Part shown: positions 10,433 to 31,878 of the stretch, piece after piece
Layout of the letters: every line of letters starts with the position of its first letter
Position numbering within the stretch: position 1 is the stretch's first letter
NCBI GenBank assembly: GCA_030017685.1
Contig: JASEHH010000007.1
Location: forward strand, 1,824 to 65,823
Origin: Thermodesulfobacteriota bacterium
GTDB taxonomy: Bacteria > Desulfobacterota > BSN033 > UBA1163
Reading direction: 5' to 3'
DNA: 64,000 bases
Notes under the pieces: generated by a model
The model's input: only the letters and a program-made list of their open reading frames with translations
Database searches by the model: none
Told to the model about the DNA's origin: nothing
Made by a program: the position numbers and the translations under genes

Positions 10433-10512
10433 TCTCATAAAATAATTGACATGACAAACATAATTTTGTACAATGACGTACAGAATGATATTTGGTTGGA
10501 GGTTACCCAGTT

Positions 10513-10746
10513 ATGAAAATGGTTACATTCACGGAGTTCCGTCAGAACGCAGCAAGTTATTTCGATGCTGTTGAGGAAGGAGAAACAATAAAGGTTCTCC
10601 GCCATGGTAAACCCATTGCAGAGGTCGTTCCTGCCTCAGCTGAAGAAAGAGCCCTTTCCTGGAAACAATCCGGCTTAAGGTTATCTGTAAAAGGAGCCTC
10701 CTTAAGCAAGGAGATTCTTAGGGAAAGGAAACAATCTAAAAGATGA
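10513..10746 (+). CDS. type II antitoxin, Phd/YefM family
   Basis: MKMVTFTEFRQNAASYFDAVEEGETIKVLRHGKPIAEVVPA is a typical Phd/YefM N-terminus. The gene overlaps the downstream PIN gene by 4 nt (ATGA). Confidence 0.8.
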   Translation: MKMVTFTEFRQNAASYFDAVEEGETIKVLRHGKPIAEVVPASAEERALSWKQSGLRLSVKGASLSKEILRERKQSKR

Positions 10747-11156
10747 GGATTTTTTTCGACTCTTCAGCCTTTGCTAAAAGGTACATTGAAGAACCTGGCA
10801 GTGATAAAATAGAAGATCTTTGTGTTCAGGCTACTCTGTTAGGGATTAGCTCTGTTTGTTTGCCTGAAGTTATTTCTGGCTTATGCAGATTGAGCCGGGA
10901 TTCTATCCTAACGAAAAATCAATATGAGGTTACAAAGGGAGCCTTGTTGAAAGATTTTGAGGATATAACGGTTTGTAACATCACCCCAGCAGTGATTGGG
11001 AAAACAATTCACATCCTTGAAACAAATACGCTCCGGACCTTGGACGCATTACATATAGGCTGCGCCTTGGAGTGGAAAGCGGAAGTTTTTGTATCTTCCG
11101 ACCTTAGACAGATTTCAACTGCGAAAAAGATGGGTTTGAAAGTGGTGAAAGTGTAG
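10743..11156 (+). CDS. vapC: PIN-domain toxin VapC
   Basis: MRIFFDSSAFAKRY.. start with a conserved D, and a later ..SSD motif. Paired with the upstream antitoxin. Confidence 0.85.
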   Translation: MRIFFDSSAFAKRYIEEPGSDKIEDLCVQATLLGISSVCLPEVISGLCRLSRDSILTKNQYEVTKGALLKDFEDITVCNITPAVIGKTIHILETNTLRTLDALHIGCALEWKAEVFVSSDLRQISTAKKMGLKVVKV

Positions 11157-11877: not shown

Positions 11878-14046
11878 CTATTCTTTTTTTTCATAAGATG
11901 CTTTCTTTTCGGGATAGATCCTGCACAGAAGCGTCCTGATATTCGACGCACCCATTGCGGGGTCACAGCTTTCTAAGGCATTGTCAGTGAGGATATTGAT
12001 GTTGGATTCATGCCAGCCGTGACCTGGATCTTTCTTCTCGGGAAACCACCATCCATGCTGGGCTGCAACGATCCGGGGATCGCGGCCGAGGCTGAGCCTT
12101 ACCCGCTGTCTCACGATTCCTCGACGGGATTCAATGATGACCCAATCGCCCTCATGGATGCCTTCCTTTGCTGCTGCGTCGGGATGGATTTCAACGATTG
12201 GATCCCGATGAAGCTCTCTGAGCCGTCCGATCTGCCTGTTTTCTGTATGAAAGAATCCGGGCTGTCGCGCACCCGTAATCAGGATATAGGGATATTCCTT
12301 ATAGAGTTCCGGCGTACTGACCGGGCTTTCGGAGGGCTCCCTGTGCTGAGGGAGGGGATCGTATCCCATCTTTTCGAGCGTGGTGGAATAGAGCTCAAAT
12401 TTCCTTGTGGGAGTGGAGAATCCCCCTTCCTTATACTTGTAGTATTTCACCTCTCCTCTGATGTAATTCATCTTCTTAAAATCCTTCCAGGTGGTGTTCA
12501 TCGGATGGAGGATATAATCGAGGGCCTCTTCAAAGTTGTTCCACCAGTATTGGCCTTGGCCGATCCGGTGGGCGAGATCGTTCAGCATCTCATGGTCTGA
12601 GCGGCATTCGCCGACCTGGATGACCTTCCGGCGTGGCAGGATATAGCCGTGACGCTTCCAGAAGTCGCCGACGTAGTCCATCTCAAGCCAGGTGGCAGCA
12701 GGAAGAACGATGTCTGCAAGTTCTGCGGTGGGAGTGAGGAAGAAGTCAGCTACGGCCATGAAGTCGACCTTTTCAAGAGCACGGTAAACTTCTTTCGCAT
12801 TGGCACGGGTGATCACGGGGTTGGAGCTAATCAGAAATAGCATTTTGACCGGGTAGGGTTTTTCCTCGAGGATTGCATCCCAGACGCATTTCGGTTGAAG
12901 GATGGCGAATCGAGAAGCAAGACGAAAACGCTCCCCTCCCAATCGCTTTGCAAATTGGTCTTTCGGGAGCATGCCATGGGCGCCGAATTGACCTACGTTG
13001 ACGACATTTGGTGTCCGGTTGAGAACCTGACCACCGGGGGCGTCAATGTTGCCGGTTATCCCCATGAGGAACATGAGCAACCGGTCATTGTCAGCGCAGT
13101 TCGTCTGCTGCTCGATGGCCACACCCCACTGAATGGCCGCAGGTTTGGTTGTCGCAAAGAGCCGTGCTGCCTCTCTGATCTTTTCTTTGGGAACCCAGGT
13201 GATCTCCTGAACTCTCTCGAGGGGGTATTCATTCACCCTCTGGACAAATGGATCCCAGCCATGGGTATATTTTTCGACGAATTCTCTGTCGTAAAGCTCC
13301 TCATTGACGATCACATTGAGCATGCCGAGGGCGAGGGCAGCGTCTGTGCCAGGTCTGAGCTGGAGCCAGACATTCGCCCGTGCTGCGGGACGGGTGAGCC
13401 TTGGATCAACGACAATGAGCTTGGCGCCCTTGTCGAGAGCCACTGAAAAAGGTTCCCCTTTGTATTCGTCTGGATTACTGATCGTCACGTTGTTTCCCCA
13501 CATGATGATGCACTTGGGGAAATTCTCGTAGTCGACGATCGGATTCGTGCCGCAGGTGATGATGCTTGTACAGATACGGGGGCCGTAACAGAAGTGGCCT
13601 GCCGTGATCACATTGGGTGAACCAAGGACGTTGGCGATGCGATAGATCACTGCCTCATTTTCCCTGCCGGTCCCATAGCCGAATACGACAGATTCAGGCC
13701 CGTACTTTTCTTTATAGGTGAGGATTCGCTCCGCAATCGTGTCCAGGGCCTCATCCCATGAGATCCGTTCCCATTTGCCGCTTGCTTTGGGGCCGATCCT
13801 TTTGACAGGGTAGGTAAGTCTGTCTTTATGGTAGGCAAGCTGTGCCGAGGCAAGCCCTTTGGTGCACAGCGTCCCATGGGCAATGGGGCAATCCGGATCG
13901 CCGGCAATTTTTGCAACTTTGCCGTCTTTCACATAGACGATGACTCCGCAACCCCCATGGCACATTCGGCAGTGGCTTTTGACGAATGAATCGTATCCAT
14001 AGACTTCCATCTCGCGCTCTATGTTCGAGTGTCGAAACTCAGGCAT
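11878..14046 (-). CDS. molybdopterin/tungstopterin oxidoreductase catalytic subunit
   Basis: 722 aa. The N-terminal motif CRMCHGGCG...CTKG is the 4Fe-4S motif of the DMSO-reductase superfamily. Confidence 0.85.
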   Translation of the reverse strand: MPEFRHSNIEREMEVYGYDSFVKSHCRMCHGGCGVIVYVKDGKVAKIAGDPDCPIAHGTLCTKGLASAQLAYHKDRLTYPVKRIGPKASGKWERISWDEALDTIAERILTYKEKYGPESVVFGYGTGRENEAVIYRIANVLGSPNVITAGHFCYGPRICTSIITCGTNPIVDYENFPKCIIMWGNNVTISNPDEYKGEPFSVALDKGAKLIVVDPRLTRPAARANVWLQLRPGTDAALALGMLNVIVNEELYDREFVEKYTHGWDPFVQRVNEYPLERVQEITWVPKEKIREAARLFATTKPAAIQWGVAIEQQTNCADNDRLLMFLMGITGNIDAPGGQVLNRTPNVVNVGQFGAHGMLPKDQFAKRLGGERFRLASRFAILQPKCVWDAILEEKPYPVKMLFLISSNPVITRANAKEVYRALEKVDFMAVADFFLTPTAELADIVLPAATWLEMDYVGDFWKRHGYILPRRKVIQVGECRSDHEMLNDLAHRIGQGQYWWNNFEEALDYILHPMNTTWKDFKKMNYIRGEVKYYKYKEGGFSTPTRKFELYSTTLEKMGYDPLPQHREPSESPVSTPELYKEYPYILITGARQPGFFHTENRQIGRLRELHRDPIVEIHPDAAAKEGIHEGDWVIIESRRGIVRQRVRLSLGRDPRIVAAQHGWWFPEKKDPGHGWHESNINILTDNALESCDPAMGASNIRTLLCRIYPEKKASYEKKE

Positions 14047-14264
14047 TCTTCCCTCCTGACGATTCTTTCAAAGCGAAATAATAACCCATAAGTCTGATTT
14101 AGTGAAGCGAACAGATAAAGGGGGAGGCGTAAAGAGAAGGTTAGAAATGCTCCTCATATGGGATTTTCTTGATGAATTGACCTCGGGGGTATTTTCTTTT
14201 ATAAAGATGTCAAATGTCAACGAAAAAGAAAGGGTGTCTTAAAAAAATATCTTAAAAAATCCTC

Positions 14265-14293
14265 TTGACAACAAATTTGGGTTGTGTTACATA
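14265..14293 (+). promoter_or_regulatory. putative promoter of the aro operon (TTGACA, 17 nt, TACATA) with conserved spacer AAATTTGGGTTG shared with the trp promoter
   Basis: TCTTGACAACAAATTTGGGTTGTGTTACATA here versus TCTTGACAAGAAATTTGGGATGAGTTAAAGA at 25809-25840. Confidence 0.4.
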
Positions 14294-14428
14294 ACACCTC
14301 CAGAAGGTGAAAAATGGATCAGCTTCATCATCTTAATTTTAGCAGTGGGTTTTATTTTTATTGGTTCTTCTATGCCGGGATCTGCCCACTGCCTCGCGCT
14401 GATCATTAATAAATAAAAAAACAGTTAA

Positions 14429-14506
14429 GGCCGTGGGTAGATTAAATTCTACCCACGGCCTTTTTTATTTTCAGCCGTGGGAAAATCCTTCTCACGGCTT
14501 TTTTTA
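14429..14506 (+). terminator. two tandem intrinsic-terminator hairpins in the 5' leader of the aro operon (candidate attenuator)
   Basis: GGCCGTGGGTAG-ATTAAATT-CTACCCACGGCC then TTTTTTATTTT. Then AGCCGTGGG-AAAATCCTT-CTCACGGCT then TTTTTTTAT. The 3' arm of hairpin 1 is complementary to the 5' arm of hairpin 2. Confidence 0.55.
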
Positions 14507-14531
14507 TCCTGGAAAAGGAGGTCAGAGTCTC

Positions 14532-15332
14532 ATGATTGGGAAAAGGATTCGTCTGGAACGCATCATAGACCGGAACTCCGGCAAGACAGTGATCATACCC
14601 ATGGATCACGGAGTGACGGTAGGGCCAATGGCCGGGTTGATCAGAATCCAAGAGACGATCAATGCCGTCGCAATGGGCGGAGCGAGCGCCATCGTTATCC
14701 ATAAGGGACTGGTAGAGACCGGCCACCGGCGAGGCGGAAAGGATGTGGGGTTGGTCGTTCATCTTTCGGCGAGCACCCGGATCGCCCCTAATCCAAACTC
14801 CAAAACTATGGTATGCACGGTGGAGGAGGCGATCAAGTTAGGGGCGGATGGAGTTTCCATACATGTGAATCTTGGAGCTGAGGATGAAAGATCCATGCTG
14901 AATGATCTGGGTAATGTAGGGAGGGTGGCTATGGAATGGGGAATGCCGCTTTTAGCCATGATGTACACGCGAGGTCCCAAGATAAAGAATGAATATGATG
15001 TTGAGTTGGTAAAACATGCGGCTCGAGTAGGAGCTGAGCTCGGAGCAGATATCGTCAAGGTCCCCTATACGGGTTCTGTGGAGAGCTTTAGCGAAGTGGT
15101 GGAAGGTTGTCCTATTCCAGTGGTTATTGCCGGCGGGGAGAAGATGGGAAATGATCGGGATATTTTAAACATGGTTAAGGGAGCGATGGATGCAGGAGGG
15201 GCTGGAGTTTCCATCGGCAGAAATGTTTTCCAGCATAAGGACCCGAGGAGGGTCGTTCAGGCCATTTTCAAGATCGTTCACCATGGCTGCACGGTCGAGG
15301 AGGGACTGAAGGGTTTGGAGGAGGGAATATGA
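14532..15332 (+). CDS. aroA': 2-amino-3,7-dideoxy-D-threo-hept-6-ulosonate (ADH) synthase, class I aldolase DhnA family (archaeal-type first step of the shikimate pathway)
   Basis: ATG at 14532 after RBS AAGGAGG. IIPMDHG...[12 protein letters not shown]...ADIVKVPY is typical of the MJ0400-type aldolase. The next gene is DHQ synthase II. Confidence 0.75.
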
Positions 15333-21865: not shown

Positions 21866-23551
21866 ATGGACTCCACCCTAAATCTTCCTCCGCTGGCCCG
21901 CCTGCCCCTGTGGATTTGGGATTCCCATGGATTTCTATCACAGGAAAAAAGATGTCTACGGAGGTCGAAAACGGTGAAATCAGAAGTTACGGGGATGGGG
22001 GAAAGGGTTAAGAGGGCGCGAATCGGCCTCAAGGATATGCTGACACTTGTGGATGTGACCCTTGAAGATCAGTTATGGGGTTCTGAGCACCTCTTCCCTT
22101 ATGATGTCTTCGAAGGGCTCCATGAGTTAATGGCGAGGACGATCCATGGAACGAAGATAGAGCGTTCCAGGCCAAAAAGCGGTAGTCAACCCTTTCACAC
22201 CTTCGAGATCCATACGGAAGAAGGGGATACCCTTGGCTATCTCAATATGATTTTTCTCAGAAAACCCATCCCCTGTTATTATTTGGTTTATGTGGAGGTC
22301 CTGGCTTCCTTTCGTGGCCGGGGACTGGGCAATAAGATCCTCAAGGCCTTCAAGGAGTTTGTGGAGAATAAAGAGGCCATGGGGCTTCTGGATAACATCA
22401 TTCCGAACGATGAACCGACCTACGATATTTATTCAAAACTCGGCTGGAAGGATATCGAAGAATGGATCGGCGAAAGCGTGGTCAATGGCGAGAGACACTA
22501 CATGGTCTTCATCCCAGCCTCCCTGGAATCCCTTGACCTGAGAGGCAGGTTGATCAAACTCCTGTTCAAAGTGAAGAAGAAGAGACCGATCATCGACATG
22601 CATGATAACGAGTCCATGGTCAGACGAACGATCTCCGAATTTCGATCGGTGTACGAAACCCTAAAGCACCTCTTCGATTTAGAGCTCTCAACCGGGACCC
22701 CAACACCATTTATGCGTTTCATGTTTACCAAGTTCATCACGAAAGTGCTTGGGTTCAGAAGGCGGATTACCACACTCCTCGGCTATACTGGCGGAGAGTC
22801 CCTTGATCAGATCTCCCTCTCGGAGCAAATCAAATCTCTTCCCCTTCAATCCTATTCTCTGTGGAGTTCGAAGGAAGGGCAGGCTGACCTATGGGGAGAG
22901 GAAAGAGTCATTCGGAACCTGCCCGAGGAGCTAAAAAGGGAACCTACCCTTTATATCGAGAGTCTCTTCTTCTATCGGAGGCCTTATCTCTCTTCCTGGT
23001 TTAGGGAAAAAGAAAAAGGAGAATCTCTTAACTTGAAGATTGCCGATATCCTTGATCTAGGATTCGATCCCACAAGGTTAAGGGAGTTCCAGCATGAAGG
23101 GGTGGAGTATATCTTCGAAAGATCAACTCCTCTTTTTCTATCCTCTATTGAAAAAAGAAGGGGCTTTCTGCCTAAAATCGCCGGGCATACCTCAGGGATG
23201 CGTTTTCGCCATGCCACGGTTCAGGTCAATCCACCCCTTGTCATTCTACAGGACAAAGGGAACGTTTACATCCTCCGCAGGAAATTGGAGGGAATACACT
23301 TCGAGGAAGCACTGGATCAGTTGAGAACTTCCACCCATTTGAAAGAGATGAATCGTACAGGAAGGATCGACCAGGCGATGATCCTGACCGTCCAGGAGAT
23401 TAAAAAAGAACTGAGGAAAAGGTTTGGATCGAACTTCTATGAGGAAATTGAGGATTTAACCTTCTTCATCCCCTGGAATCTTGAAAGTAATATGCCGAGG
23501 GTCACCGTGGATACCGCAAGTATCTTTCTGGATACCCTATGGATTGCTTGA
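21866..23551 (+). CDS. hypothetical protein with a GNAT-acetyltransferase-like segment (FRGRGLGNKIL) plus a large uncharacterised C-terminal region; start uncertain
   Basis: A 561-aa ORF. Only the acetyl-CoA-binding R-x-x-G-x-G motif was recognised. Confidence 0.45.
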   Translation: MDSTLNLPPLARLPLWIWDSHGFLSQEKRCLRRSKTVKSEVTGMGERVKRARIGLKDMLTLVDVTLEDQLWGSEHLFPYDVFEGLHELMARTIHGTKIERSRPKSGSQPFHTFEIHTEEGDTLGYLNMIFLRKPIPCYYLVYVEVLASFRGRGLGNKILKAFKEFVENKEAMGLLDNIIPNDEPTYDIYSKLGWKDIEEWIGESVVNGERHYMVFIPASLESLDLRGRLIKLLFKVKKKRPIIDMHDNESMVRRTISEFRSVYETLKHLFDLELSTGTPTPFMRFMFTKFITKVLGFRRRITTLLGYTGGESLDQISLSEQIKSLPLQSYSLWSSKEGQADLWGEERVIRNLPEELKREPTLYIESLFFYRRPYLSSWFREKEKGESLNLKIADILDLGFDPTRLREFQHEGVEYIFERSTPLFLSSIEKRRGFLPKIAGHTSGMRFRHATVQVNPPLVILQDKGNVYILRRKLEGIHFEEALDQLRTSTHLKEMNRTGRIDQAMILTVQEIKKELRKRFGSNFYEEIEDLTFFIPWNLESNMPRVTVDTASIFLDTLWIA

Positions 23552-23603: not shown

Positions 23604-24767
23604 ATGGATTCAGTCGTCATCGTTTTAAAAGGAAAGGATCCGTATCTCACGACAAAAAAGGCACTTCAACAATTCCCCTTGCCGAATTTGAAGGGAAGAA
23701 GGGCCTTGATAAAACCGAATGCGGCTCGGTTGGCCGTCCCCGGTGAAGGAGTGACAACACATCCCGGGGTGGTTGAAGCCACGATCGATCATCTGAAAGA
23801 AAAAGGAGCAGGTGAGATTGCGATCGGTGAGAGTTGTATCTTTGGAGTGGATCCAGAGCAGGCCTTCCGGGCAACCGGCATGAAGGAGGTTTCGGAAAAA
23901 AAGAGGGTTGAACTCATACATTTAGACCGGGTTGCCCCGATGGAAATCAAAATCCCTGGAGGAAAGGTTCTAAAGAGCATTAGAGTGCCTGCCATCTTAA
24001 AAAAATTCGATTTCATCATCTCAATCCCTGTGATGAAAACCCACATGCATACCCGGGTTACATTAAGCATTAAAAATATGAAGGGGTTATTATGGCGAAG
24101 GGAGAAGGCAAGGCTACATCAACTCCGATGCAATGGGAAAGTTGCTCAAGGGGATAAGGCCCTGGATATTGCCATATCCGATATGGCCTCGGTCTTATTT
24201 CCCCATTTGGCCATCATCGATGGGACAACAGGACTGGAGGGAATGGGACCTGCTTATGGAAGAAAGAAAGAGGCGGGGCTTATCGTTTTAGGGAATGACC
24301 CCGTTTCCGCAGATGCTGTAGCCACACGACTGATGGGGTTTCCCCCGGAAGAAGTACCTCATCTAAGATTGTTAGCAGAAAGGGGACTGGGTGAAATCCA
24401 ATTTTCAAACATTTCAATCAAACCGGGGGATTTTTTAAAGTGGGAGACACATTTTGAGCTTCCACCTTCCAAACTCTCTTTCTCCTTTCCCGATGTCGTG
24501 ATTCACGATGAAGGATCATGCAGTGCCTGTCTTTCAACATTATTTGTTCTTCTTCATCGTTACAAGGATTTGCTTACTCCCCACCGCTTAGGGGATAATA
24601 AAATTCACATTGGCATTGGAAAACATCTGGAGAATATTTCCAGAGGGACGATCTTGATAGGTAACTGTACCCATAAGATGAAAAAGAGGGGCACCTTTGT
24701 CAAGGGATGCCCTCCTGTGGCTTCCGAGGTCCTGAGGTTATTATCCTCATTGGGTGTTTATGTTTAA
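23604..24767 (+). CDS. DUF362 domain protein
   Basis: 387 aa. Its layout (IKPNA...G..THP.VV...KTH....T...KN.KG) is typical of DUF362. Confidence 0.6.
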   Translation: MDSVVIVLKGKDPYLTTKKALQQFPLPNLKGRRALIKPNAARLAVPGEGVTTHPGVVEATIDHLKEKGAGEIAIGESCIFGVDPEQAFRATGMKEVSEKKRVELIHLDRVAPMEIKIPGGKVLKSIRVPAILKKFDFIISIPVMKTHMHTRVTLSIKNMKGLLWRREKARLHQLRCNGKVAQGDKALDIAISDMASVLFPHLAIIDGTTGLEGMGPAYGRKKEAGLIVLGNDPVSADAVATRLMGFPPEEVPHLRLLAERGLGEIQFSNISIKPGDFLKWETHFELPPSKLSFSFPDVVIHDEGSCSACLSTLFVLLHRYKDLLTPHRLGDNKIHIGIGKHLENISRGTILIGNCTHKMKKRGTFVKGCPPVASEVLRLLSSLGVYV

Positions 24768-24780
24768 GGAGGTGCCCTTT

Positions 24781-25815
24781 ATGATTTTTGATAGGCTTTC
24801 CGAGCGGGGGACAAGGTTCCTGAATGTAAAATACCCGATCATTTCAGGAGGGATGACCTGGGTGAGCAATGTGGCTCTCGTGAAGGCTGTTAGCCAGCAT
24901 GGGGTTTTCCCCGTTCTTGCAGGAGGGAATTTGCCACCTGATGCTTTTGAAAAGGAGGTGGATCAATGTCTTCAGGAACTGACCGGACCGTTCGCTGTGA
25001 ATCTGATCACCATTGCCCCAAATTATAAGACGCAGTTTGAAATTCTCCTTTCAAAAAAAGTTCCTTTTGTTGTTTTCGCTGGAGGTATTCCGCGGAAGGT
25101 GGATATCGAGCGAATGAAAAAGGTTGGCAAAAAAACCATGTCCTTTGCCTCGGATGAATCCATTGCCTCACAACAAATCCGTTTCGGTATCGATGCGCTC
25201 CTTCTCGAAGGAAGCGAGGCAGGAGGCCACATTGGCCATGTCTCACTGGTCATCCTTTTACAGCAGGTGCTTTTCCGATTCGATCAGGTTCCGGTTTTCG
25301 TTGCCGGCGGAATTGCGATAGGCAGGATGGTCGCCCATCTTTTGCTGATGGGTGCGGCGGGTTGCCAGCTCGGAACGAGATTTGCGATGAGTGAGGAGTG
25401 CACCGCACACCCGGATTTCAAAAAGACTCTCATGAGGGCCCGCGCCCGACAAGCCATCGCCACACCGCAATATGATTCCAAACTTCCTGTTGTCGCCGTC
25501 CGGGCCATCAAGAACAAAGGGACAGAGGATTTCGGGAGGCTCCAGTTGAGACTCCTCAGAGAACTTGAAGAAGGAAAGATCAGCCGGGAAAAAGCCCAGT
25601 ATGAGGTTGAAAATTTCTGGATGGGTGCGCTTCGGCGGGCAGTGGTCGAAGGAGATGTTGACCATGGATCATTAATGGTGGGACAGAGTGTGGGGTTGAT
25701 TCGCGAAATCTTGCCCATGAGAGATATCGTCGAAAACCTTGTCAGAGAGGCCGAAGAAGAATTGATAAGAATAAAGGAAGGGTTGGATGGAAAATTAGCC
25801 CACGAAACTTCTTGA
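24781..25815 (+). CDS. nitronate monooxygenase / FabK-like (NPD family) FMN oxidoreductase
   Basis: ATG after RBS AAGGAGG. YPIISGGMTWVSNVALVKAVSQHG and GSEAGGHIG motifs. Confidence 0.7.
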   Translation: MIFDRLSERGTRFLNVKYPIISGGMTWVSNVALVKAVSQHGVFPVLAGGNLPPDAFEKEVDQCLQELTGPFAVNLITIAPNYKTQFEILLSKKVPFVVFAGGIPRKVDIERMKKVGKKTMSFASDESIASQQIRFGIDALLLEGSEAGGHIGHVSLVILLQQVLFRFDQVPVFVAGGIAIGRMVAHLLLMGAAGCQLGTRFAMSEECTAHPDFKKTLMRARARQAIATPQYDSKLPVVAVRAIKNKGTEDFGRLQLRLLRELEEGKISREKAQYEVENFWMGALRRAVVEGDVDHGSLMVGQSVGLIREILPMRDIVENLVREAEEELIRIKEGLDGKLAHETS

Positions 25816-25840
25816 CAAGAAATTTGGGATGAGTTAAAGA
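25812..25840 (+). promoter_or_regulatory. putative trp operon promoter (TTGACA, 17 nt, TAAAGA) sharing spacer motif AAATTTGGG with the aro promoter
   Basis: See the 14265-14293 entry. The -35 hexamer overlaps the stop codon of the upstream gene. Confidence 0.4.
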
Positions 25841-25887
25841 AGTACTACTTTAATGGAGCATGTAACGTGAAGACTACCTTTGGATTG

Positions 25888-25950
25888 ATGAATAATAGCT
25901 GGTGGTGCTGGGCGAAAAAAGAGGAGGAGGTCTGTCCGGTGCCACAATAA
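25888..25950 (+). CDS. trpL: trp leader peptide MNNSWWCWAKKEEEVCPVPQ (three Trp codons)
   Basis: A 20-codon ORF located between the putative promoter and a terminator hairpin, 130 nt upstream of trpE. Weak SD (GGA). Confidence 0.5.
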   Translation: MNNSWWCWAKKEEEVCPVPQ

Positions 25951-25979
25951 CCATTTGAATCGAAAGTAAAGGCCATGGA

Positions 25980-26027
25980 CAGCTTCTCTCTTGCTCCCAT
26001 GGCCTTTTTTGTTTTTTAGGGAATATC
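25980..26027 (+). terminator. intrinsic terminator / attenuator hairpin (GGCCATGG..CCATGGCC then TTTTTTGTTTTTT)
   Basis: An 8-9 bp GC-rich stem followed by two U-runs. Confidence 0.6.
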
Positions 26028-26036
26028 AACCTTAAC

Positions 26037-26066
26037 CTCAACCTCAACCTCAACCTTTTTATTCAT
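26037..26066. repeat. hexanucleotide tandem repeat (CAACCT)x5 with one TAACCT variant, followed by TTTTT
   Basis: Read directly, 16 bp upstream of the trpE start. Confidence 0.8.
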
Positions 26067-26081
26067 CCTGGAGGATTAACC

Positions 26082-27560
26082 GTGGCGACTCCATCTTTAG
26101 AAGATTTTAAGAGACTGGCTGCTCAGGGCAACCTCATTCCCATCTTTAAGGAGGTTCACTTTGACTGGGAGACACCCCTCTCAGCATTCCGGAAGATCGA
26201 CGATGGAAAGTTTTCTTTCCTCCTCGAAAGCGCAGAAGGAGGGGAGAAATGGGGCCGATACAGTTTTCTTGGCTCAGGACCCTCTCTTCTCTTCCGAACA
26301 AAAGGAGAGGAGTTCGAAATCCTTAAGAATGGAGAGGTTCTTCGAGAGGGGAAGGATAAGGATCCGCTCCGTGCGCTGGAGGGTCTCCTGAAGCATTACC
26401 GTCCTGTTCTTCATGATTCCCTTCCACGTTTTTTCGGAGGAGCAGTTGGGTATGTCAATTATGATGTGGTCAGGTCTTTTGAGAAACTTCCGGAACAGCT
26501 CCCTCAGGACATAGGTCTTTATGACTCCTATTTCATGGTCACCGATACCCTGCTCGTCTTCGACAATGTGAAGCAGAAGGTCAAGGTGATTTCCAATACA
26601 TTCTTAGATGGCCAAAAACCCTTGGAAGAGGTCTACCGAGAAGCTCAGGAGAAGATTAAAAACATCATTGTCAAGATCCAAAGCCCAGCGCCCACTTCTC
26701 CCGTGCAAAAATTTTTCTCTCTCTCTTCTCTTCACTCAAACTTCAGCCGGGAAGATTTTATGAAAGGGGTGGAAAGGGCTAAGGAATATATTAAAGCGGG
26801 TGATGTTATTCAGGTGGTCCTCTCACAACGGTTCTCTACAGAGATCCATTGTCAGCCCTTTGATATCTATCGTGCCCTGAGGTCAATCAACCCTTCCCCT
26901 TATCTTTTTTATTTGAAGATGGATGATATTGTCCTTCTGGGGGCTTCACCCGAGGTGATGGTCCGTCTGGAAGACAGGCAGATTGAGCTCCGGCCACTCG
27001 CTGGAACTCGCAGAAGAGGAAGGACTGAGGAGGAAGATAGATCGATGGAAAGGGACCTACTGGCGGATGAGAAGGAAAGGGCGGAGCACATCATGCTGGT
27101 TGACCTTGGCCGAAATGACGTGGGCCGAGTAGCCGAGATCGGCTCGGTTGAAGTTACGGAATTGATGGGTGTGGAACGCTACTCCCACGTCATGCATATC
27201 GTCTCTCATATCCGTGGATCTCTGGCACAAGATAAAAACGCTTTCGACGTCTTCAGGGCAGCTTTTCCTGCCGGGACGGTATCCGGTTCCCCTAAGATTC
27301 GGGCCATGGAGATCATCGAGGAGCTGGAACCTGTCCGGCGCGGGCCTTACGCCGGAGCGGTGGGTTACTTCAGTTTTTCCGGAAACATGGACACCTGTAT
27401 CACGATTCGTTCCATTCTCATCAAAGACGGCAAGGCTTACGTCCAGGCAGGCGCAGGGATTGTCGCTGACTCGGATCCGGAGAAAGAATACGACGAGACC
27501 CTGAATAAGGCGCAGGCCGTCTTCAAGGCCATTCAACTTGCCGAGGAGGGATTGAGATGA
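26082..27560 (+). CDS. trpE: anthranilate synthase component I
   Basis: 492 aa with chorismate-binding domain motifs (LESAEGGEKWGRYSF, GAVGYFSFSGNMDTCITIR). Confidence 0.9.
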   Translation: MATPSLEDFKRLAAQGNLIPIFKEVHFDWETPLSAFRKIDDGKFSFLLESAEGGEKWGRYSFLGSGPSLLFRTKGEEFEILKNGEVLREGKDKDPLRALEGLLKHYRPVLHDSLPRFFGGAVGYVNYDVVRSFEKLPEQLPQDIGLYDSYFMVTDTLLVFDNVKQKVKVISNTFLDGQKPLEEVYREAQEKIKNIIVKIQSPAPTSPVQKFFSLSSLHSNFSREDFMKGVERAKEYIKAGDVIQVVLSQRFSTEIHCQPFDIYRALRSINPSPYLFYLKMDDIVLLGASPEVMVRLEDRQIELRPLAGTRRRGRTEEEDRSMERDLLADEKERAEHIMLVDLGRNDVGRVAEIGSVEVTELMGVERYSHVMHIVSHIRGSLAQDKNAFDVFRAAFPAGTVSGSPKIRAMEIIEELEPVRRGPYAGAVGYFSFSGNMDTCITIRSILIKDGKAYVQAGAGIVADSDPEKEYDETLNKAQAVFKAIQLAEEGLR

Positions 27561-28120
27561 TTCTGGTTATCGATAATTATGACTCCTTTACATATAACCT
27601 GGTTCAATACCTCGGTGAACTGGGATCAACATGCGTAGTCTATCGGAACGATGAGATCGATCTTCAGACCATCGAAGAGAAGAATCCGAACCATCTGGTC
27701 ATCTCCCCGGGCCCTTGCACCCCAAGAGAAGCGGGCATCTCCGTACAGGCAATCCTCCGGATGGCCGGGAAGATTCCCATTCTCGGAGTCTGCCTGGGAC
27801 ATCAGTGTTTGGGGGCTGCTTTCGGAGGAGAGATCGTTCAGGCCAAACGCCTGATGCATGGGAAAGGTTCTCTAATCTATCATGATGGAAAGACGATCTA
27901 TAAAGACCTTCCTAACCCTTTTCAGGCCATCCGGTATCACTCGCTTCTCATTGAGCGAAAGAGCCTGCCAGATTGCCTGGAGATTTCTGCGGAGACTCAA
28001 GAAGGGGAGATTATGGGCGTGAGGCACAAACGATTTTCCATCGAAGGGGTCCAATTCCACCCCGAATCAATCATGACGGAAGGAGGAAAAATCCTTCTTA
28101 AGAATTTCTTAGAAATATAA
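27557..28120 (+). CDS. trpG: anthranilate synthase component II (glutamine amidotransferase)
   Basis: MILVIDNYDSFTYNLVQYL, GVCLGHQ and HPES triad. Confidence 0.9.
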   Translation: MILVIDNYDSFTYNLVQYLGELGSTCVVYRNDEIDLQTIEEKNPNHLVISPGPCTPREAGISVQAILRMAGKIPILGVCLGHQCLGAAFGGEIVQAKRLMHGKGSLIYHDGKTIYKDLPNPFQAIRYHSLLIERKSLPDCLEISAETQEGEIMGVRHKRFSIEGVQFHPESIMTEGGKILLKNFLEI

Positions 28121-28393
28121 TCCCCCCATCCCCCCCTTTCGGAGAGGGTGTCGTAATGGAGTTAATGGGCAACTCTTGGCAGAGCAGGTGGTCGGGTTCC
28201 TCACCTTTAGAATGCGGGTCTTTTAAGTTAGAGGGAAGAGGACTTTTAGATAATTCAATGTTTTCATAAGTTTGGAGCGACAGAGCTTAACAACGAAAGG
28301 TTTCCGCTCTAAAGGTTCGTCACCCAACCACCCGCTCCGCCTCTTATATAGGTGGCTTTTGGTGGATTATGACACAGTCTCCAAAGGGGGGGA
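28121..28393. repeat. MITE-like element, family B, copy 1 (inverted ends CCCCCCCTTTCGGAGAGGGTGTCGTAAT / ATTATGACACAGTCTCCAAAGGGGGGG)
   Basis: Fills the entire trpG-trpD intergenic spacer. Its terminal inverted repeats match those of the element at 30219-30454. Confidence 0.5.
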
Positions 28394-28409
28394 TTAGAAT
28401 TAGAGGAGG

Positions 28410-29435
28410 ATGGCCATGTTTAAAGAGCTCATTAAACGATTGGTGGAAGGGAAGGACTTAAGGGAAGATGAGGCTTATGAGGCCATGTCATCCATCATGG
28501 ACGGGAAAGCCCTGCCCACCCAGATCGCTTCGTTTCTCACTGCCCTGAGGATGAAGGGGGAGACGGTCCCGGAGATTACCGGATTCGCACGGGCGATGAG
28601 AGCCCGAGCTCTCCCGATCCGATCAGCGAACGGGGAATATGTTGTGGACACTTGTGGTACCGGTGGGGATGGAAACAACACCTTTAACATTTCCACTGCT
28701 GTGGCTTTCGTTGCCGCTGGCAGTGGGTTAACCGTGGCCAAACATGGGAACCGTTCGGTGTCGAGCCAGTGCGGAAGCGCTGATGTTTTGGAGGCTTTAG
28801 GGGTTAACATCAATCTCGTCCCTGAGAGGGTGGAGCGTTGTTTGCTGGAGGTCGGCATGGCTTTTCTCTTTGCCCCTCTTTTTCATCCCGCCATGATGTA
28901 CGCCATCGGCCCACGAAGGGAGATGGGATTCCGCACGGTCTTCAACCTCCTCGGCCCCCTGACCAATCCAGCCGGAGCCAACGTTCAGGTTATAGGGGTT
29001 TACCGTAAGGATCTCGTTGGGCCAATCGCGGAGGTATTGAGAAATCTCGGATGCAAAGGAGCCCTGGTCGTCCATGGAGAGGATCATTGCGATGAGATCA
29101 GCATTACGGGGAAAACATTCATTGTCCAGCTTCAGAGGGGGAGGATTGAAAGTTATGAGGTTGAGCCCGAAGATATCGGCCTGAAGAGGAGGACCTTAGA
29201 GCAGATCCGGGGGGGAGGAGCGCAGGAGAATAAAAATATTCTCCTGGAGATTTTGGAGGGAGTCCATGGCCCCAGGCGGGAGGTTGTCCTTTTAAATGCA
29301 TCGGCTGTCTTTATGGCCGCAGAAAGGGTTTCAAACTTAAGGGACGGAATGGAAATGGCTGAAGAGTCCATTGACTCGGGCCGGGCAATGAGAAAACTTA
29401 AAGAGCTCATCCAATTTACGAATCGTGAGGGGTGA
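28410..29435 (+). CDS. trpD: anthranilate phosphoribosyltransferase
   Basis: GTGGDG and HGNRSVSS motifs, and about 340 aa. Confidence 0.9.
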   Translation: MAMFKELIKRLVEGKDLREDEAYEAMSSIMDGKALPTQIASFLTALRMKGETVPEITGFARAMRARALPIRSANGEYVVDTCGTGGDGNNTFNISTAVAFVAAGSGLTVAKHGNRSVSSQCGSADVLEALGVNINLVPERVERCLLEVGMAFLFAPLFHPAMMYAIGPRREMGFRTVFNLLGPLTNPAGANVQVIGVYRKDLVGPIAEVLRNLGCKGALVVHGEDHCDEISITGKTFIVQLQRGRIESYEVEPEDIGLKRRTLEQIRGGGAQENKNILLEILEGVHGPRREVVLLNASAVFMAAERVSNLRDGMEMAEESIDSGRAMRKLKELIQFTNREG

Positions 29436-30217
29436 TGAAGATGTTTCTAAGAAAAATCGTCGAGAAAAAAAAGGAAGAGGTCGAAGTGAGAAAAAAGATC
29501 TTCTCCATTAGGGAGAGGGAGGAAGGGATTTCAAACCTTTCCCTTCCCCGGGATTTGATGGAGGCGATCTCTCAACATGCCCCCATGGCACTCATTGCTG
29601 AAATTAAGTTTGCCTCCCCCTCTGCCGGAGTGATCAAGACGGATGGAGATCCTCGCCAAATCGCAAGCGAATATGAGTCGGCAGGAGCCTCAGCCATTTC
29701 GGTTCTCACAGAACCCAATTTTTTCAAAGGGGATCTTTCCTATCTGGGCTTGGTGAAAGAGAAAACCTCCCTCCCCGTCCTTCAAAAGGATTTCATCATC
29801 GATCCTTTCCAGATTTTTGAAGGAAGGGCCGCGGGGGCGGATGCAGTCCTTCTCATCGCTGCCATTCTCGATCGAGAACAACTCAACGATTTTGTGGACC
29901 TGGCAACAAGCCTCCGGATGGTCCCTCTGGTTGAAATTCACGATGAGGACGATCTTGAAAAGATATCAACTCTCTCTCTTCCTCTGATAGGGATTAATAA
30001 CAGGAACTTGAAAACGTTTGAAGTTGACCTAAGGACGACCCTTCGGCTAAAGAAGGAGATTTCCTCGAGATCAAAAGTGATCAGTGAGAGCGGAATTAAG
30101 AGTTCCCATGAGGTGAGAGTACTTAGAGAAGCAGGAGTGGATGGCATTCTGGTGGGAGAGATTTTGATGAGAAGTTCCGATCCCACCTCAAAAATTAAGG
30201 AGCTTCTCAAGGGATGA
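29435..30217 (+). CDS. trpC: indole-3-glycerol phosphate synthase
   Basis: ALIAEIKFASPSAG and LLIAAIL motifs. Its start overlaps the trpD stop. Confidence 0.85.
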   Translation: MKMFLRKIVEKKKEEVEVRKKIFSIREREEGISNLSLPRDLMEAISQHAPMALIAEIKFASPSAGVIKTDGDPRQIASEYESAGASAISVLTEPNFFKGDLSYLGLVKEKTSLPVLQKDFIIDPFQIFEGRAAGADAVLLIAAILDREQLNDFVDLATSLRMVPLVEIHDEDDLEKISTLSLPLIGINNRNLKTFEVDLRTTLRLKKEISSRSKVISESGIKSSHEVRVLREAGVDGILVGEILMRSSDPTSKIKELLKG

Positions 30218-30218
30218 C

Positions 30219-30454
30219 CACCCCCACCCATCCCTCCCCCCTCGGGAGACTGTGTCGCAATTGGGGAAATGGTCAAAAATGTCATGCTTTGAACCAGGTG
30301 CTGAACTTGTTTCAGTATTGTTTCAGCATCTCATAGAATCAACTACTTACGAGACCCTGAAATAAATTCAGGGTGACAAAATAATTATTACGACACAGTC
30401 TCTCGGAAGGGGAGGGTGAGCCTGCCTGCCGCAGGCAGGGGTGGGGGAGGAGAA
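30219..30454. repeat. MITE-like element, family B, copy 2, inserted at the trpC/trpF junction and flanked by direct repeat GATGA(CC)
   Basis: Left end CCACCCCCACCCATCCCTCCCCCCTCGGGAGACTGTGTCGCAAT. The right end is its inverted complement. The left flanking repeat contains the trpC TGA stop and the right one contains the trpF ATG. Confidence 0.55.
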
Positions 30455-30455
30455 G

Positions 30456-31088
30456 ATGACCTGGATTAAGATCTGCGGGATCACTAATATTGAAGACGGC
30501 TTAGAGGCTGTTTCGCTGGGAGTTAATGCACTGGGCTTTATCTTCGCTCCCAGCCCGAGAAGGGTTGAGCCTTCTGTAGCGAAGGAGATCATTTCGGTTC
30601 TTCCTGAAACGCTTTTAAAAGTGGGAGTCTTTGTGAATGAAGATCCGGAAGAAGTCCTGCGAGTTGCTGAATATTGTGGCCTCAATGTCCTTCAATTTCA
30701 TGGACAGGAGTCACAGGAGTATTGTCAGAAATTTTTTATTCCGGTCTTCAAGGCCATTCGCATAAAGAATTTGGAAAGCTTAAAAGATATTGAGAATTAT
30801 CACGATGTGACCATCCTTCTTGATACCTACAGTCCTGTACAAGCGGGTGGAACGGGGAATCCCTTTCCAGGGGAGATCGCACTAAAAGCGAAAGAGGAAA
30901 GAGACTTTATCCTCTCCGGAGGACTGAGCCCATCGAATGTGGGAGAAGCCATCAAGAAAGTGAGGCCCATGGGAGTGGATGTTTGCTCAGGTGTGGAGGT
31001 AACTCCGGGAAAGAAAGATCCATTAAAAATGAGGGATTTTATAAAGGAGGTCAGAAAAGCGGATGAGCAGGATCGATCAAACATTTAA
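30456..31088 (+). CDS. trpF: phosphoribosylanthranilate isomerase
   Basis: MTWIKICGITNIEDGLEAVSLGVNALGFIF is typical of PRAI. Confidence 0.85.
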   Translation: MTWIKICGITNIEDGLEAVSLGVNALGFIFAPSPRRVEPSVAKEIISVLPETLLKVGVFVNEDPEEVLRVAEYCGLNVLQFHGQESQEYCQKFFIPVFKAIRIKNLESLKDIENYHDVTILLDTYSPVQAGGTGNPFPGEIALKAKEERDFILSGGLSPSNVGEAIKKVRPMGVDVCSGVEVTPGKKDPLKMRDFIKEVRKADEQDRSNI

Positions 31089-31878
31089 AAAATTGAAAAA
31101 TAAATTTCGGGCGGCTTTGATCCCTTTTATCGTTGCCGGTGATCCGGATCTCGGTACAACAGAGGCGCTCATATTCAAAATGGTCGAAAACGGAGCGGAT
31201 ATGATCGAACTGGGCGTCCCTTTTCCAGAGCCGATTGCAGATGGCCCCACCATTCAGGCGACACACAAGCGAGCCCTCCAAAATGGAATCGGTCTAAAAG
31301 AGATACTCCGTATGACAGAGAGATTAAGAGACAGAATCCCACCTCTGATCCTGATGACCTACTTAAACCCTGTCTTAGAGTATGGCCTAAGAGATTTTGC
31401 AAAGGACTGCAAAGAGAATGGCGTCGATGGAGTCATTATCCCTGATCTAACTCCTGAAGAAGCAATGAAATGGGTCCGGGAAGCCCGAAGAACCGATTTA
31501 GACACTATTTTTCTTATTAACCCGGACAGTCCACTAGAACTTGTGAGATGGGCGAGCCGATCCAGTCGTGGATTTATTTACTATGCCACGGTGGCCGGTG
31601 CCACCGGTATAAGAGAGACTTTGCCAGAAGATCTCGAACGGTCTGTCAAGCGAATAAAAGAACAGAGTCAGAAGCCGGTGGCCGTCGGCTTCGGCATTTC
31701 CACTCCGGAACAGGCGAAGACGATCAGCCGTTTTGCTGATGGAGTTGTTGTGGGAAGCGCGATTGTGAAGATCATCGAGGAGAACCTCAAAAATCCGAAT
31801 ATGGTTAAAAGAGTAGGAGATTTCCTTGCCTCTTTTGCCAGGGCATTAAAAGGAAGTGGAAGGGAAATTAAATCATGA
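31063..31878 (+). CDS. trpA: tryptophan synthase alpha chain
   Basis: ALIPFIVAGDPDLGTT..ADMIELGVPFPEPIADGP motif. Confidence 0.9.
   Translation: MSRIDQTFKKLKNKFRAALIPFIVAGDPDLGTTEALIFKMVENGADMIELGVPFPEPIADGPTIQATHKRALQNGIGLKEILRMTERLRDRIPPLILMTYLNPVLEYGLRDFAKDCKENGVDGVIIPDLTPEEAMKWVREARRTDLDTIFLINPDSPLELVRWASRSSRGFIYYATVAGATGIRETLPEDLERSVKRIKEQSQKPVAVGFGISTPEQAKTISRFADGVVVGSAIVKIIEENLKNPNMVKRVGDFLASFARALKGSGREIKS

Follow-up and report, generated by a model that had tools for sequence, protein, structure and literature searches.

Several ribosome-mediated attenuators of amino acid biosynthesis have been described, and in this study we compare with them the leader of an aro operon found in a 64-kb stretch of contig JASEHH010000007.1 from a Thermodesulfobacteriota bacterium (the whole stretch of 64,000 nucleotides is the window; positions are counted from its first letter). 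The leader is about 235 nt long and lies in the region 14296-14534, between a divergent molybdopterin oxidoreductase gene and an operon on the + strand. In the model of the his leader, segments pair as AB, CD and EF in the off state, EF being the terminator, and as BC and DE in the on state (PMC10989985). As in the his leader of E. coli and Salmonella (hisL), there are six segments in the aro leader, with the same alternation and with the regulatory codons in a run located at segment A or directly after it. Unlike hisL, which has seven His codons, the aro leader has codons for Phe, Tyr and Trp; its middle hairpin, C:D, bears a U-tract of its own, giving tandem terminators where the middle hairpin of his is a structural relay only; and it possesses an extra outer stem, here called P0, which joins the start and the end of the leader open reading frame (ORF).

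The enterobacterial pheL and trpL are ribosome-mediated attenuators with a run of cognate aromatic codons (PMC11802643, PMC3082878), a description that would fit the aro leader as well. Each of them, however, serves one amino acid in a terminal branch with four segments and a single terminator, whereas the aro leader carries codons for all three and precedes the common chorismate pathway. The nearest functional precedent is aroR of Corynebacterium glutamicum, a Phe-Tyr-Phe leader peptide located before aroF, the gene for 3-deoxy-D-arabino-heptulosonate-7-phosphate (DAHP) synthase, which acts by attenuation (PMC11802643, citing Neshat et al. 2014) and is reported to respond to Phe, not to Tyr (PMC11802643). 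In both cases a mixed aromatic leader peptide stands at the first step of the common aromatic pathway. Nevertheless, aroR has three regulatory residues, none of them Trp, and belongs to an actinobacterium with a classical DAHP synthase, as opposed to eight residues including Trp in the aro leader; there is no sequence relationship between the two, and tandem terminators go unmentioned for aroR (PMC11802643). Finally, a putative attenuator before an aroA'-led aromatic supraoperon in Desulfovibrio vulgaris was listed in 2005 from a prediction database, without a mechanism (PMC1173090, Table 7). That listing agrees with our locus in its predicted terminator and antiterminator, its aroA'-led operon and its deltaproteobacterial host; the listing itself describes no leader peptide, sensing mechanism or structure, and the comparison is one of descriptions only.

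Beyond these cases, a paper on delta-proteobacterial regulons (PMC545781) mentions no aromatic leaders, and in the literature that we could cover, most subscription journals being outside its scope, we found no description of this leader family, of an aroA' or Syntrophus attenuator, or of tandem terminators combined with a leader peptide. Nowhere in the window is the gathering score of an Rfam family reached. His_leader (RF00514; 25.1 bits against a gathering score of 49, E = 0.077, at 14325-14466 over the full model) and Phe_leader (RF01859; 23 bits against 55, E = 0.23) are among the best sub-threshold matches, and the aro leader is a member of neither. From its sequence, we regard it as very probably a ribosome-mediated (leader-peptide) transcription attenuator that couples the aro operon to charged tRNA-Phe, tRNA-Tyr and tRNA-Trp. 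The mechanism as such is ordinary: on this reading it is a classical his-type leader-peptide attenuator, equipped with two terminators and belonging to a widespread, unannotated family.

The leader ORF and its aromatic codons

A ribosome-mediated attenuator has a short leader ORF that carries a start codon and a ribosome-binding site of its own and is rich in codons for the amino acids in which the pathway ends. Upstream of aroA', the following elements correspond to this description:

14303-14309, + strand: Shine-Dalgarno (SD) motif GAAGGTG for the leader ORF, spaced 4 nt from the ATG at 14314, read from the sequence
14314-14409, + strand: leader-peptide ORF, 31 codons and TAA, followed by a second in-frame TAA; it lies inside the long-range stem
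14350-14373, + strand: regulatory codons TTT TAT TTT TAT TGG TTC TTC TAT (FYFYWFFY), codons 13-20 of the leader ORF

An earlier prediction for this region (the original prediction), made from the sequence alone, had proposed an attenuator sensing aromatic amino acids, and in kind it was most likely right; what it overlooked is this ORF, which on sequence grounds we identify as the aromatic sensor. The run at 14350-14373 is the sole 8-codon stretch with at least six aromatic residues in all six frames of the window, and eight aromatic codons out of eight were reached in none of 20,000 shuffles of the local AT-rich sequence.

To place the leader among its relatives, we used AroA' as a query and selected by protein 80 genome loci (67-93% identity). 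A leader ORF with at least six aromatic residues in eight, no more than 450 nt upstream of aroA', is present in 37 of them, and about 30 of these 37 also have the two-hairpin module described below. The 37 loci come from metagenome-assembled genomes of Syntrophaceae, Syntrophorhabdus, Thermodesulfobacteriota, Desulfobacca, Syntrophobacterales and Desulfofervidaceae, or from ones classed as deltaproteobacterial, and none of the Planctomycetota loci among the 80 has an aromatic-run leader ORF. Three leader sequence types can be distinguished: A (MDQLR.FNFSSGFNFYWFYYAQVYPLPLADR), which includes the window, B (..GGYYFGWFYYAGVYPPPGS) and C (..YYYFSYYYFRGLSCASTFKR). The ATG and the SD-like motif are conserved among relatives, with A.GGT/AGG kept at the SD position in the alignments. 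In type A relatives the aromatic positions swap between F, Y and W and also show synonymous changes (TTT/TTC, TAT/TAC), while insertions and deletions measure 6, 3 and 6 nt within the ORF and take arbitrary lengths past its stop codon.

The strongest argument for the ORF as sensor is that the regulatory codons follow the regulated pathway. A scan of metagenomes for the exact pattern of the double-hairpin core returned 125 matches in 120 DNA stretches; these were selected on an invariant core and so served us for leader codons and gene context only, not for covariation. Approximately 43 of the 125 are preceded by an aromatic-run leader ORF and approximately 10 by a Trp-run leader, and the roughly 70 without an aromatic leader may be unrelated hairpin repeats. 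The same module follows Phe/Tyr/Trp-rich leaders ahead of aroA' and of DAHP synthase genes; three loci with Phe/Tyr-rich leaders (L087, L093 and L182) and one with GWRWWW (L121) have a class I-beta DAHP synthase downstream, and L190 has one of class I-alpha. Ahead of trpE, by contrast, the leaders are Trp-only (SWWWW, CWWWW, CWWW), as in L096 (CWWWW) and L155 (SWWWW).

The peptide is conserved at its ends as well (MDQL..., ...PLPLADR; also ADH/R, SSG and PLP), which could be taken to mean that the product of the small ORF is a small hydrophobic or aromatic peptide with a function of its own and that the hairpins serve as plain terminators or as insulators of divergent units; the first hairpin does score as a terminator on the minus strand too. 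We give this explanation hardly any credence. The conserved ends coincide with the arms of P0 (GAUCAGC/GCUGAUC) and of the A:B helix (GCAGUGGG/CCCACUGC), so RNA pairing suffices to account for them. For the leader peptides of types A, B and C and that of the window's own trp leader, NCBIfam and Pfam give no match at E <= 10, and members of their exact-sequence clusters are unnamed in a large protein collection. The gene upstream (11878-14046) runs divergently on the minus strand, so that a terminator at this place would serve no gene, and an aromatic run that tracks the downstream pathway is not what a functional peptide would lead one to expect.

Alternative helices of the aro leader

Downstream of and within the leader ORF, the sequence can form two mutually exclusive sets of helices from the following segments:

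14317-14323, + strand: 5' arm of P0, GATCAGC, pairing with 14398-14404
14398-14404, + strand: 3' arm of P0, GCTGATC, directly before the leader stop codon
14342-14349, + strand: segment A, GCAGTGGG, pairing in the off state with CCCACTGC (14385-14392) of segment B
14380-14394, + strand: segment B, ATCTGCCCACTGCCT; 14385-14392 pairs with A, and 14380-14389 (plus 14391-14394) pairs with C as the antiterminator
14427-14471, + strand: terminator 1 (T1), with C at 14427-14441, a loop, D at 14448-14462 and the U-tract TTTTTTATTTT at 14461-14471
14473-14507, + strand: terminator 2 (T2), with E at 14473-14483, a loop, F at 14489-14499 and the U-tract TTTTTTTAT at 14499-14507

The leader folds at -88.8 kcal/mol (z = -7.4), and none of 200 shuffles is as stable. 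The long-range stem of GATCAGC and GCTGATC that had been proposed earlier appears in both the minimum free energy (MFE) structure and the centroid fold; as P0, it is paired in 95.2% of cells in 21 relatives, with two pairs changing on both sides, and the A:B helix is 95.8% paired. The two tandem intrinsic terminators of the original prediction were recovered by a consensus scan, T1 as a 15-bp hairpin at 14427-14462 with the tail TTTTATTTTC and T2 as an 11-bp hairpin at 14473-14499 with the tail TTTTTTATCC. Shuffling leads one to expect a mean of 0.9 terminator-like sites in an 800-nt stretch, where the + strand shows two. T1 is 96.1% paired in relatives and T2 92-96%, the latter with compensatory changes, and in a broader set the two together are 93.4% paired with 11 pairs changed on both sides. 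There are thus two predicted intrinsic terminators, both conserved, between the leader ORF and the structural gene. For the off state as a whole (P0, A:B, T1 and T2), 94.8% of cells are paired in the 21 relatives, compared with 35-59% in slid controls.

In the on state, B (ATCTGCCCAC, 14380-89) pairs with C (GTGGGTAGAT, 14433-42) and D pairs with E. D (CCCACGGC, 14452-14459) is a perfect 8-bp complement of E (GCCGTGGG, 14474-14481), as the original prediction had noticed for the second arm of hairpin 1 and the first arm of hairpin 2. Together, B:C and D:E are 97.9% paired in the 21 close type A relatives and 96.9% in a broader protein-selected set of 20 sequences, in which 8 of 18 pairs have changed on both sides; this covariation is reached in 0 of 500 shuffles, and slid controls give 37-40%. 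Taken singly, both helices are 97-98% paired, five of the ten B:C pairs having changed on both sides in the broader set, and one antiterminator pair is found as AU in 12 sequences, GC in four and GU in four. With the helices of both states conserved, the mutually exclusive architecture proposed for the attenuator is upheld, and it takes the form seen in ribosome-mediated attenuation: B:C overlaps T1, which it would exclude, and also A:B, the upstream helix that excludes it and that a stalled ribosome would disrupt.

With few exceptions, leaders of types A and B have T-rich tails at both hairpins, while type C relatives have a single terminator. In the most divergent relative, L054, both hairpins carry the altered core GCCATGG/CCATGGC and segment B reads GTCTATGGCC, joint changes that leave each of the four helices intact. 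L033, L035 and L054 lack the U-tract of hairpin 1 and retain the six-segment arrangement, so that B:C followed by the D:E relay is the only route there from the ribosome to the terminator (E:F).

A leader this structured, with parts that are nearly invariant (GCCGTGGG, CCCAC), might also be one in which the terminators are run by a T-box and tRNA, a TRAP-like protein or a small-molecule riboswitch, the small ORF being incidental. We hold this to be very unlikely. Near-invariance is explained otherwise, because each base serves two alternative helices. In keeping with the Rfam result for the window, and as the original prediction had said of the T-box motif, no T-box is among the 29 Rfam matches listed at E <= 10 for 14000-14700. 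Furthermore, an incidental ORF would not keep its ATG, its SD motif, its frame and a swapping aromatic run across three leader types, nor would it turn Trp-only ahead of trpE.

For its sensor, the original prediction had turned to the hairpins themselves: translation would start at GTG 14433 and continue into aroA', sensing the codons of the U-tracts and of the T2 stem and thereby setting the hairpins. The frame is indeed open into aroA' (ORF 14433..15332) and translates as was quoted, with seven aromatic codons (F, Y, F, W, F, F, Y) rather than the six counted, and translation of several relatives gives a similar peptide (HGLFYF..PWE..SHGFF), an outcome of nucleotide conservation in the hairpins and U-tracts. 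An SD-like AAGG does precede the GTG, at 14427-14430, but with a spacing of only 2 nt, and both elements are buried inside the 15-bp T1 stem. The comparison with relatives that had been suggested as a check bore out the hairpins and not this frame. Of 26 related two-hairpin leaders, eight have the equivalent GTG in phase with aroA', which is the one in three expected by chance, and in only four is the frame open as well; in the closest relative, L001 (AroA' 93% identical), the GTG is out of frame and a stop follows after 13 codons. The aromatic codons are trivial, because the T-rich tails read UUU/UAU, as those of any T-rich terminator do, and the invariant stem GCCGUGGG gives UGG. A ribosome crossing hairpin and U-tract would trail the decision point of the polymerase, abolish termination and sense nothing, and a far better sensor ORF lies upstream. 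We rejected the GTG frame as sensor on its lack of conservation and its buried start, and see next to no chance that it acts as one. It also carries a caution: U-tracts always read as Phe and Tyr, so an aromatic ORF over terminators is no evidence of sensing. That the leader senses aromatic amino acids nonetheless remains most likely, through the ORF at 14314-14409.

Proposed switching by a stalled ribosome

If the leader ORF is the sensor, the events would run as follows. Transcription would begin from the TTGACA promoter at about 14298, and a ribosome would load at AAGGTG/ATG 14314. When aromatic amino acids are plentiful, or when there is no translation, A (14342-49) would pair with B (14385-92), with P0 (14317-23/14398-404) clamping the outside. 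C:D would then form T1 and E:F would form T2, such that transcripts end near 14468-71 or, having escaped T1, near 14505-08. Scarcity of any one aromatic amino acid would stall the ribosome on 14350-14373, within the A-B loop, where it would cover A or sterically bar A:B from closing. B (14380-89) would capture C (14433-42) once this had been made, blocking T1; the freed D (14452-59) would capture E (14474-81) before F was made, blocking T2; and RNA polymerase would read on into aroA'. We infer termination, stalling and read-through, and likewise where transcription starts, in what order the helices fold co-transcriptionally and how efficient each terminator is.

The energies of the helices are:

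A:B, -18.4 kcal/mol
P0 + A:B, -25.5 kcal/mol
B:C, -24.4 kcal/mol
T1 (C:D), -29.6 kcal/mol
D:E, -14.1 kcal/mol
T2 (E:F), -16.7 kcal/mol

Equilibrium folding with the ribosome footprint masked did not discriminate between the states, always returning T1, and was replaced by co-transcriptional snapshots. In these, the RNA lying 3' of a stalled ribosome has B:C as its MFE structure up to the transcription of D, and with B:C locked, D:E is the MFE structure until F is transcribed. The A-B loop measures 35 nt, and segment A abuts the regulatory codons. The ribosome footprint extends about 12 nt beyond the A site, and on this assumption stalls at codons 13-18 leave B wholly free; the coordinates and this footprint size would place the stalled ribosome in the A-B loop.

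A number of points weigh against ribosome-mediated attenuation as we have set it out, beginning with the inferred status of its events. For the whole leader, equilibrium favours the off conformer (-67.6 against -28.7 kcal/mol for the on conformer), and T1 is in every MFE structure computed with the footprint masked; because T1 always forms at equilibrium, the switch must be kinetic, as in all attenuators. A ribosome at the stop codon (14407) leaves B uncovered, which means that termination in plenty would require A:B to form again and C:D to form before B has left the ribosome. Because the bases hardly vary among the close type A sequences, neither B:C nor D:E has double-sided covariation there, and the covariation of the broader set stems from remoter members, which are aligned with less certainty. 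Once F has been made, the MFE structure switches to E:F, favoured by approximately 3 kcal/mol even with B:C locked. Lastly, the complementarity of D and E could be a by-product of duplication between T1 and T2.

These last two points bear on the second terminator in particular, and on the possibility that the leader peptide governs T1 only, with T2 as an unregulated back-up that lowers basal read-through and D:E as a mere duplication product. The stems of T1 and T2 are near-repeats (GGCCGTGGG/CCCACGGCC against AGCCGTGGG/CTCACGGCT), which would make the complementarity of D to E automatic, E:F exceeds D:E slightly in stability and becomes the MFE structure once F is made, and type C relatives manage with one terminator. 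Yet an efficient unregulated T2 would cap induction, and nearly every leader of type A or B keeps the pair. In L033, L035 and L054, moreover, where hairpin 1 has lost its U-tract, D:E is needed for any regulation at all; in L054 both hairpins have changed jointly to GCCATGG/CCATGGC with D:E intact; and D:E is the MFE structure in the interval before F is transcribed. We consider control of T1 alone unlikely, though clearly less so than the rivals weighed above. For relief of T2 through the D:E relay we put the chances at about even. Given that E:F is slightly more stable than D:E and is the MFE structure once F is made, modelling suggests that relief of T2 is plausible and may be partial only. 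A double gate of this kind, if true, would mean very low basal expression and a steeper response than with a single terminator.

Genomic setting and the wider family

The leader is embedded among the following elements:

11878-14046, - strand: molybdopterin oxidoreductase gene, divergent and upstream of the aro leader
14264-14293, + strand: promoter, with the -35 element CTTGACA at 14264-14270 and a -10-like region with GTTA at 14286-14289
14515-14521, + strand: ribosome-binding site AAGGAGG of aroA', whose start codon is ATG 14532
14532-15332, + strand: aroA', encoding 2-amino-3,7-dideoxy-D-threo-hept-6-ulosonate (ADH) synthase, 407 bits against NF005556 (cutoff 241) with full-length coverage

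AroB' (3-dehydroquinate synthase II) scores 442 bits against a cutoff of 392, and the gene order of the operon is aroA'-aroB'-aroD-aroE-aroA-aroK-aroC-pheA, with pheA encoding chorismate mutase/prephenate dehydratase; on these profile scores the leader is that of an aro operon, as originally predicted. The promoter was not called by a consensus scan, because its -10 hexamer, TACATA, is weak. CTTGACA and GTTA are, however, invariant in 19 related aro leaders and in the window's own trp leader, and on this basis the transcription start would lie near 14297-14301. The promoter regions of aro (TCTTGACAACAAATTTGGGTTGTGTTACAT, 14264-14293) and trp (TCTTGACAAGAAATTTGGGATGAGTTAAAG, 25810-25839), both on the + strand, are nearly identical; the spacer AAATTTGGG that they have in common could be a regulator site or could merely reflect common ancestry. 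A 44-aa ORF with a TTG start (14282-14416) was rejected as a chance ORF, as it begins inside the -10 region, before the inferred transcription start, and has no aromatic run. In the MFE fold, the 5' end ACCUCC (14296-14301) pairs with the aroA' SD sequence GGAGGU (about 14517-14522). We rejected translational control by this pairing because the 5' sequence is not conserved among relatives, and judge the pairing to be probably fortuitous.

A second, separate leader-peptide attenuator is located upstream of trpE (26082), at 25867-26015 on the + strand of the window, with this leader ORF:

GTG 25867 (or ATG 25888) to TAA 25948-50, + strand: trp leader ORF, VKTTFGLMNNSWWCWAKKEEEVCPVPQ, containing WWCW with three Trp codons

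Its terminator has the core GCCATGG...CCATGGC (25972-26003), the same core variant as in L054, followed by CTTTTTTG, and the tail CTTTTTTGTTTTTT. This terminator and T1 are the only matches to the core motif on the + strand of the window; both are palindromic and match the minus strand too. Between the trp terminator and the ribosome-binding site of trpE lies a tandem hexamer repeat, TCAACC x 5.2 (92% matches; 26026-26056, + strand), of which CCUC could pair with the GGAGG of trpE, judging by sequence. The trp cluster (26082-31878, + strand) consists of trpE, trpG, trpD, trpC, trpF and trpA, with trpB absent between trpF (30441-31088) and trpA (31063-31878). Three genes separate pheA from trpE: an unassigned 561-aa ORF (21866-23551), a 387-aa ORF (23604-24767) that is far below any family cut-off, and a FabK-like ORF (24754-25815) that is below cut-off too.

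In the metagenome stretches L122, L134, L141 and L157, a degenerate type A-like leader (e.g. MDQLNISNLSSGYNFYWDCWAKKVYPLSPADQ) with the double hairpin precedes not aroA' but an ORF of about 100-120 aa (KVIIDRKVKKGKE...SKGYISGETL...WQSADDW); the one such ORF searched, that of L122, has no NCBIfam match at a strict cut-off of 1e-15. Elsewhere in the window, two overlapping adjacent small ORFs of 84 and 137 aa (10492-11156, + strand) look by eye like an antitoxin and PIN-domain toxin pair.

Taken beyond this one operon, a single leader peptide controlling two successive terminators by a helix relay may be an ancient, portable and retargetable expression platform in Thermodesulfobacteriota and their neighbours, a proposal that we put forward tentatively and at slightly less than even odds. 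Its core would be GCCGTGGG...CCCACGGC...GCCGTGGG, and, with the same reserve, a change of leader codons alone might have retargeted it between "any aromatic" and "tryptophan only". Such a leader would illustrate how codon replacement can retarget an attenuator in nature, and how the middle hairpin of a his-type relay can itself be a terminator. For annotators, the aromatic-run leader ORF together with the GCCGTGGG double hairpin is a recognisable element, absent from Rfam, Pfam and NCBIfam, that flags aro, DAHP synthase and trp operons, both in related genome loci and on metagenome contigs. For the biology of these uncultured, syntrophic Thermodesulfobacteriota, it would place the archaeal-type (aroA'/aroB') route to chorismate under classical ribosome-mediated attenuation in which Phe, Tyr and Trp are read together.

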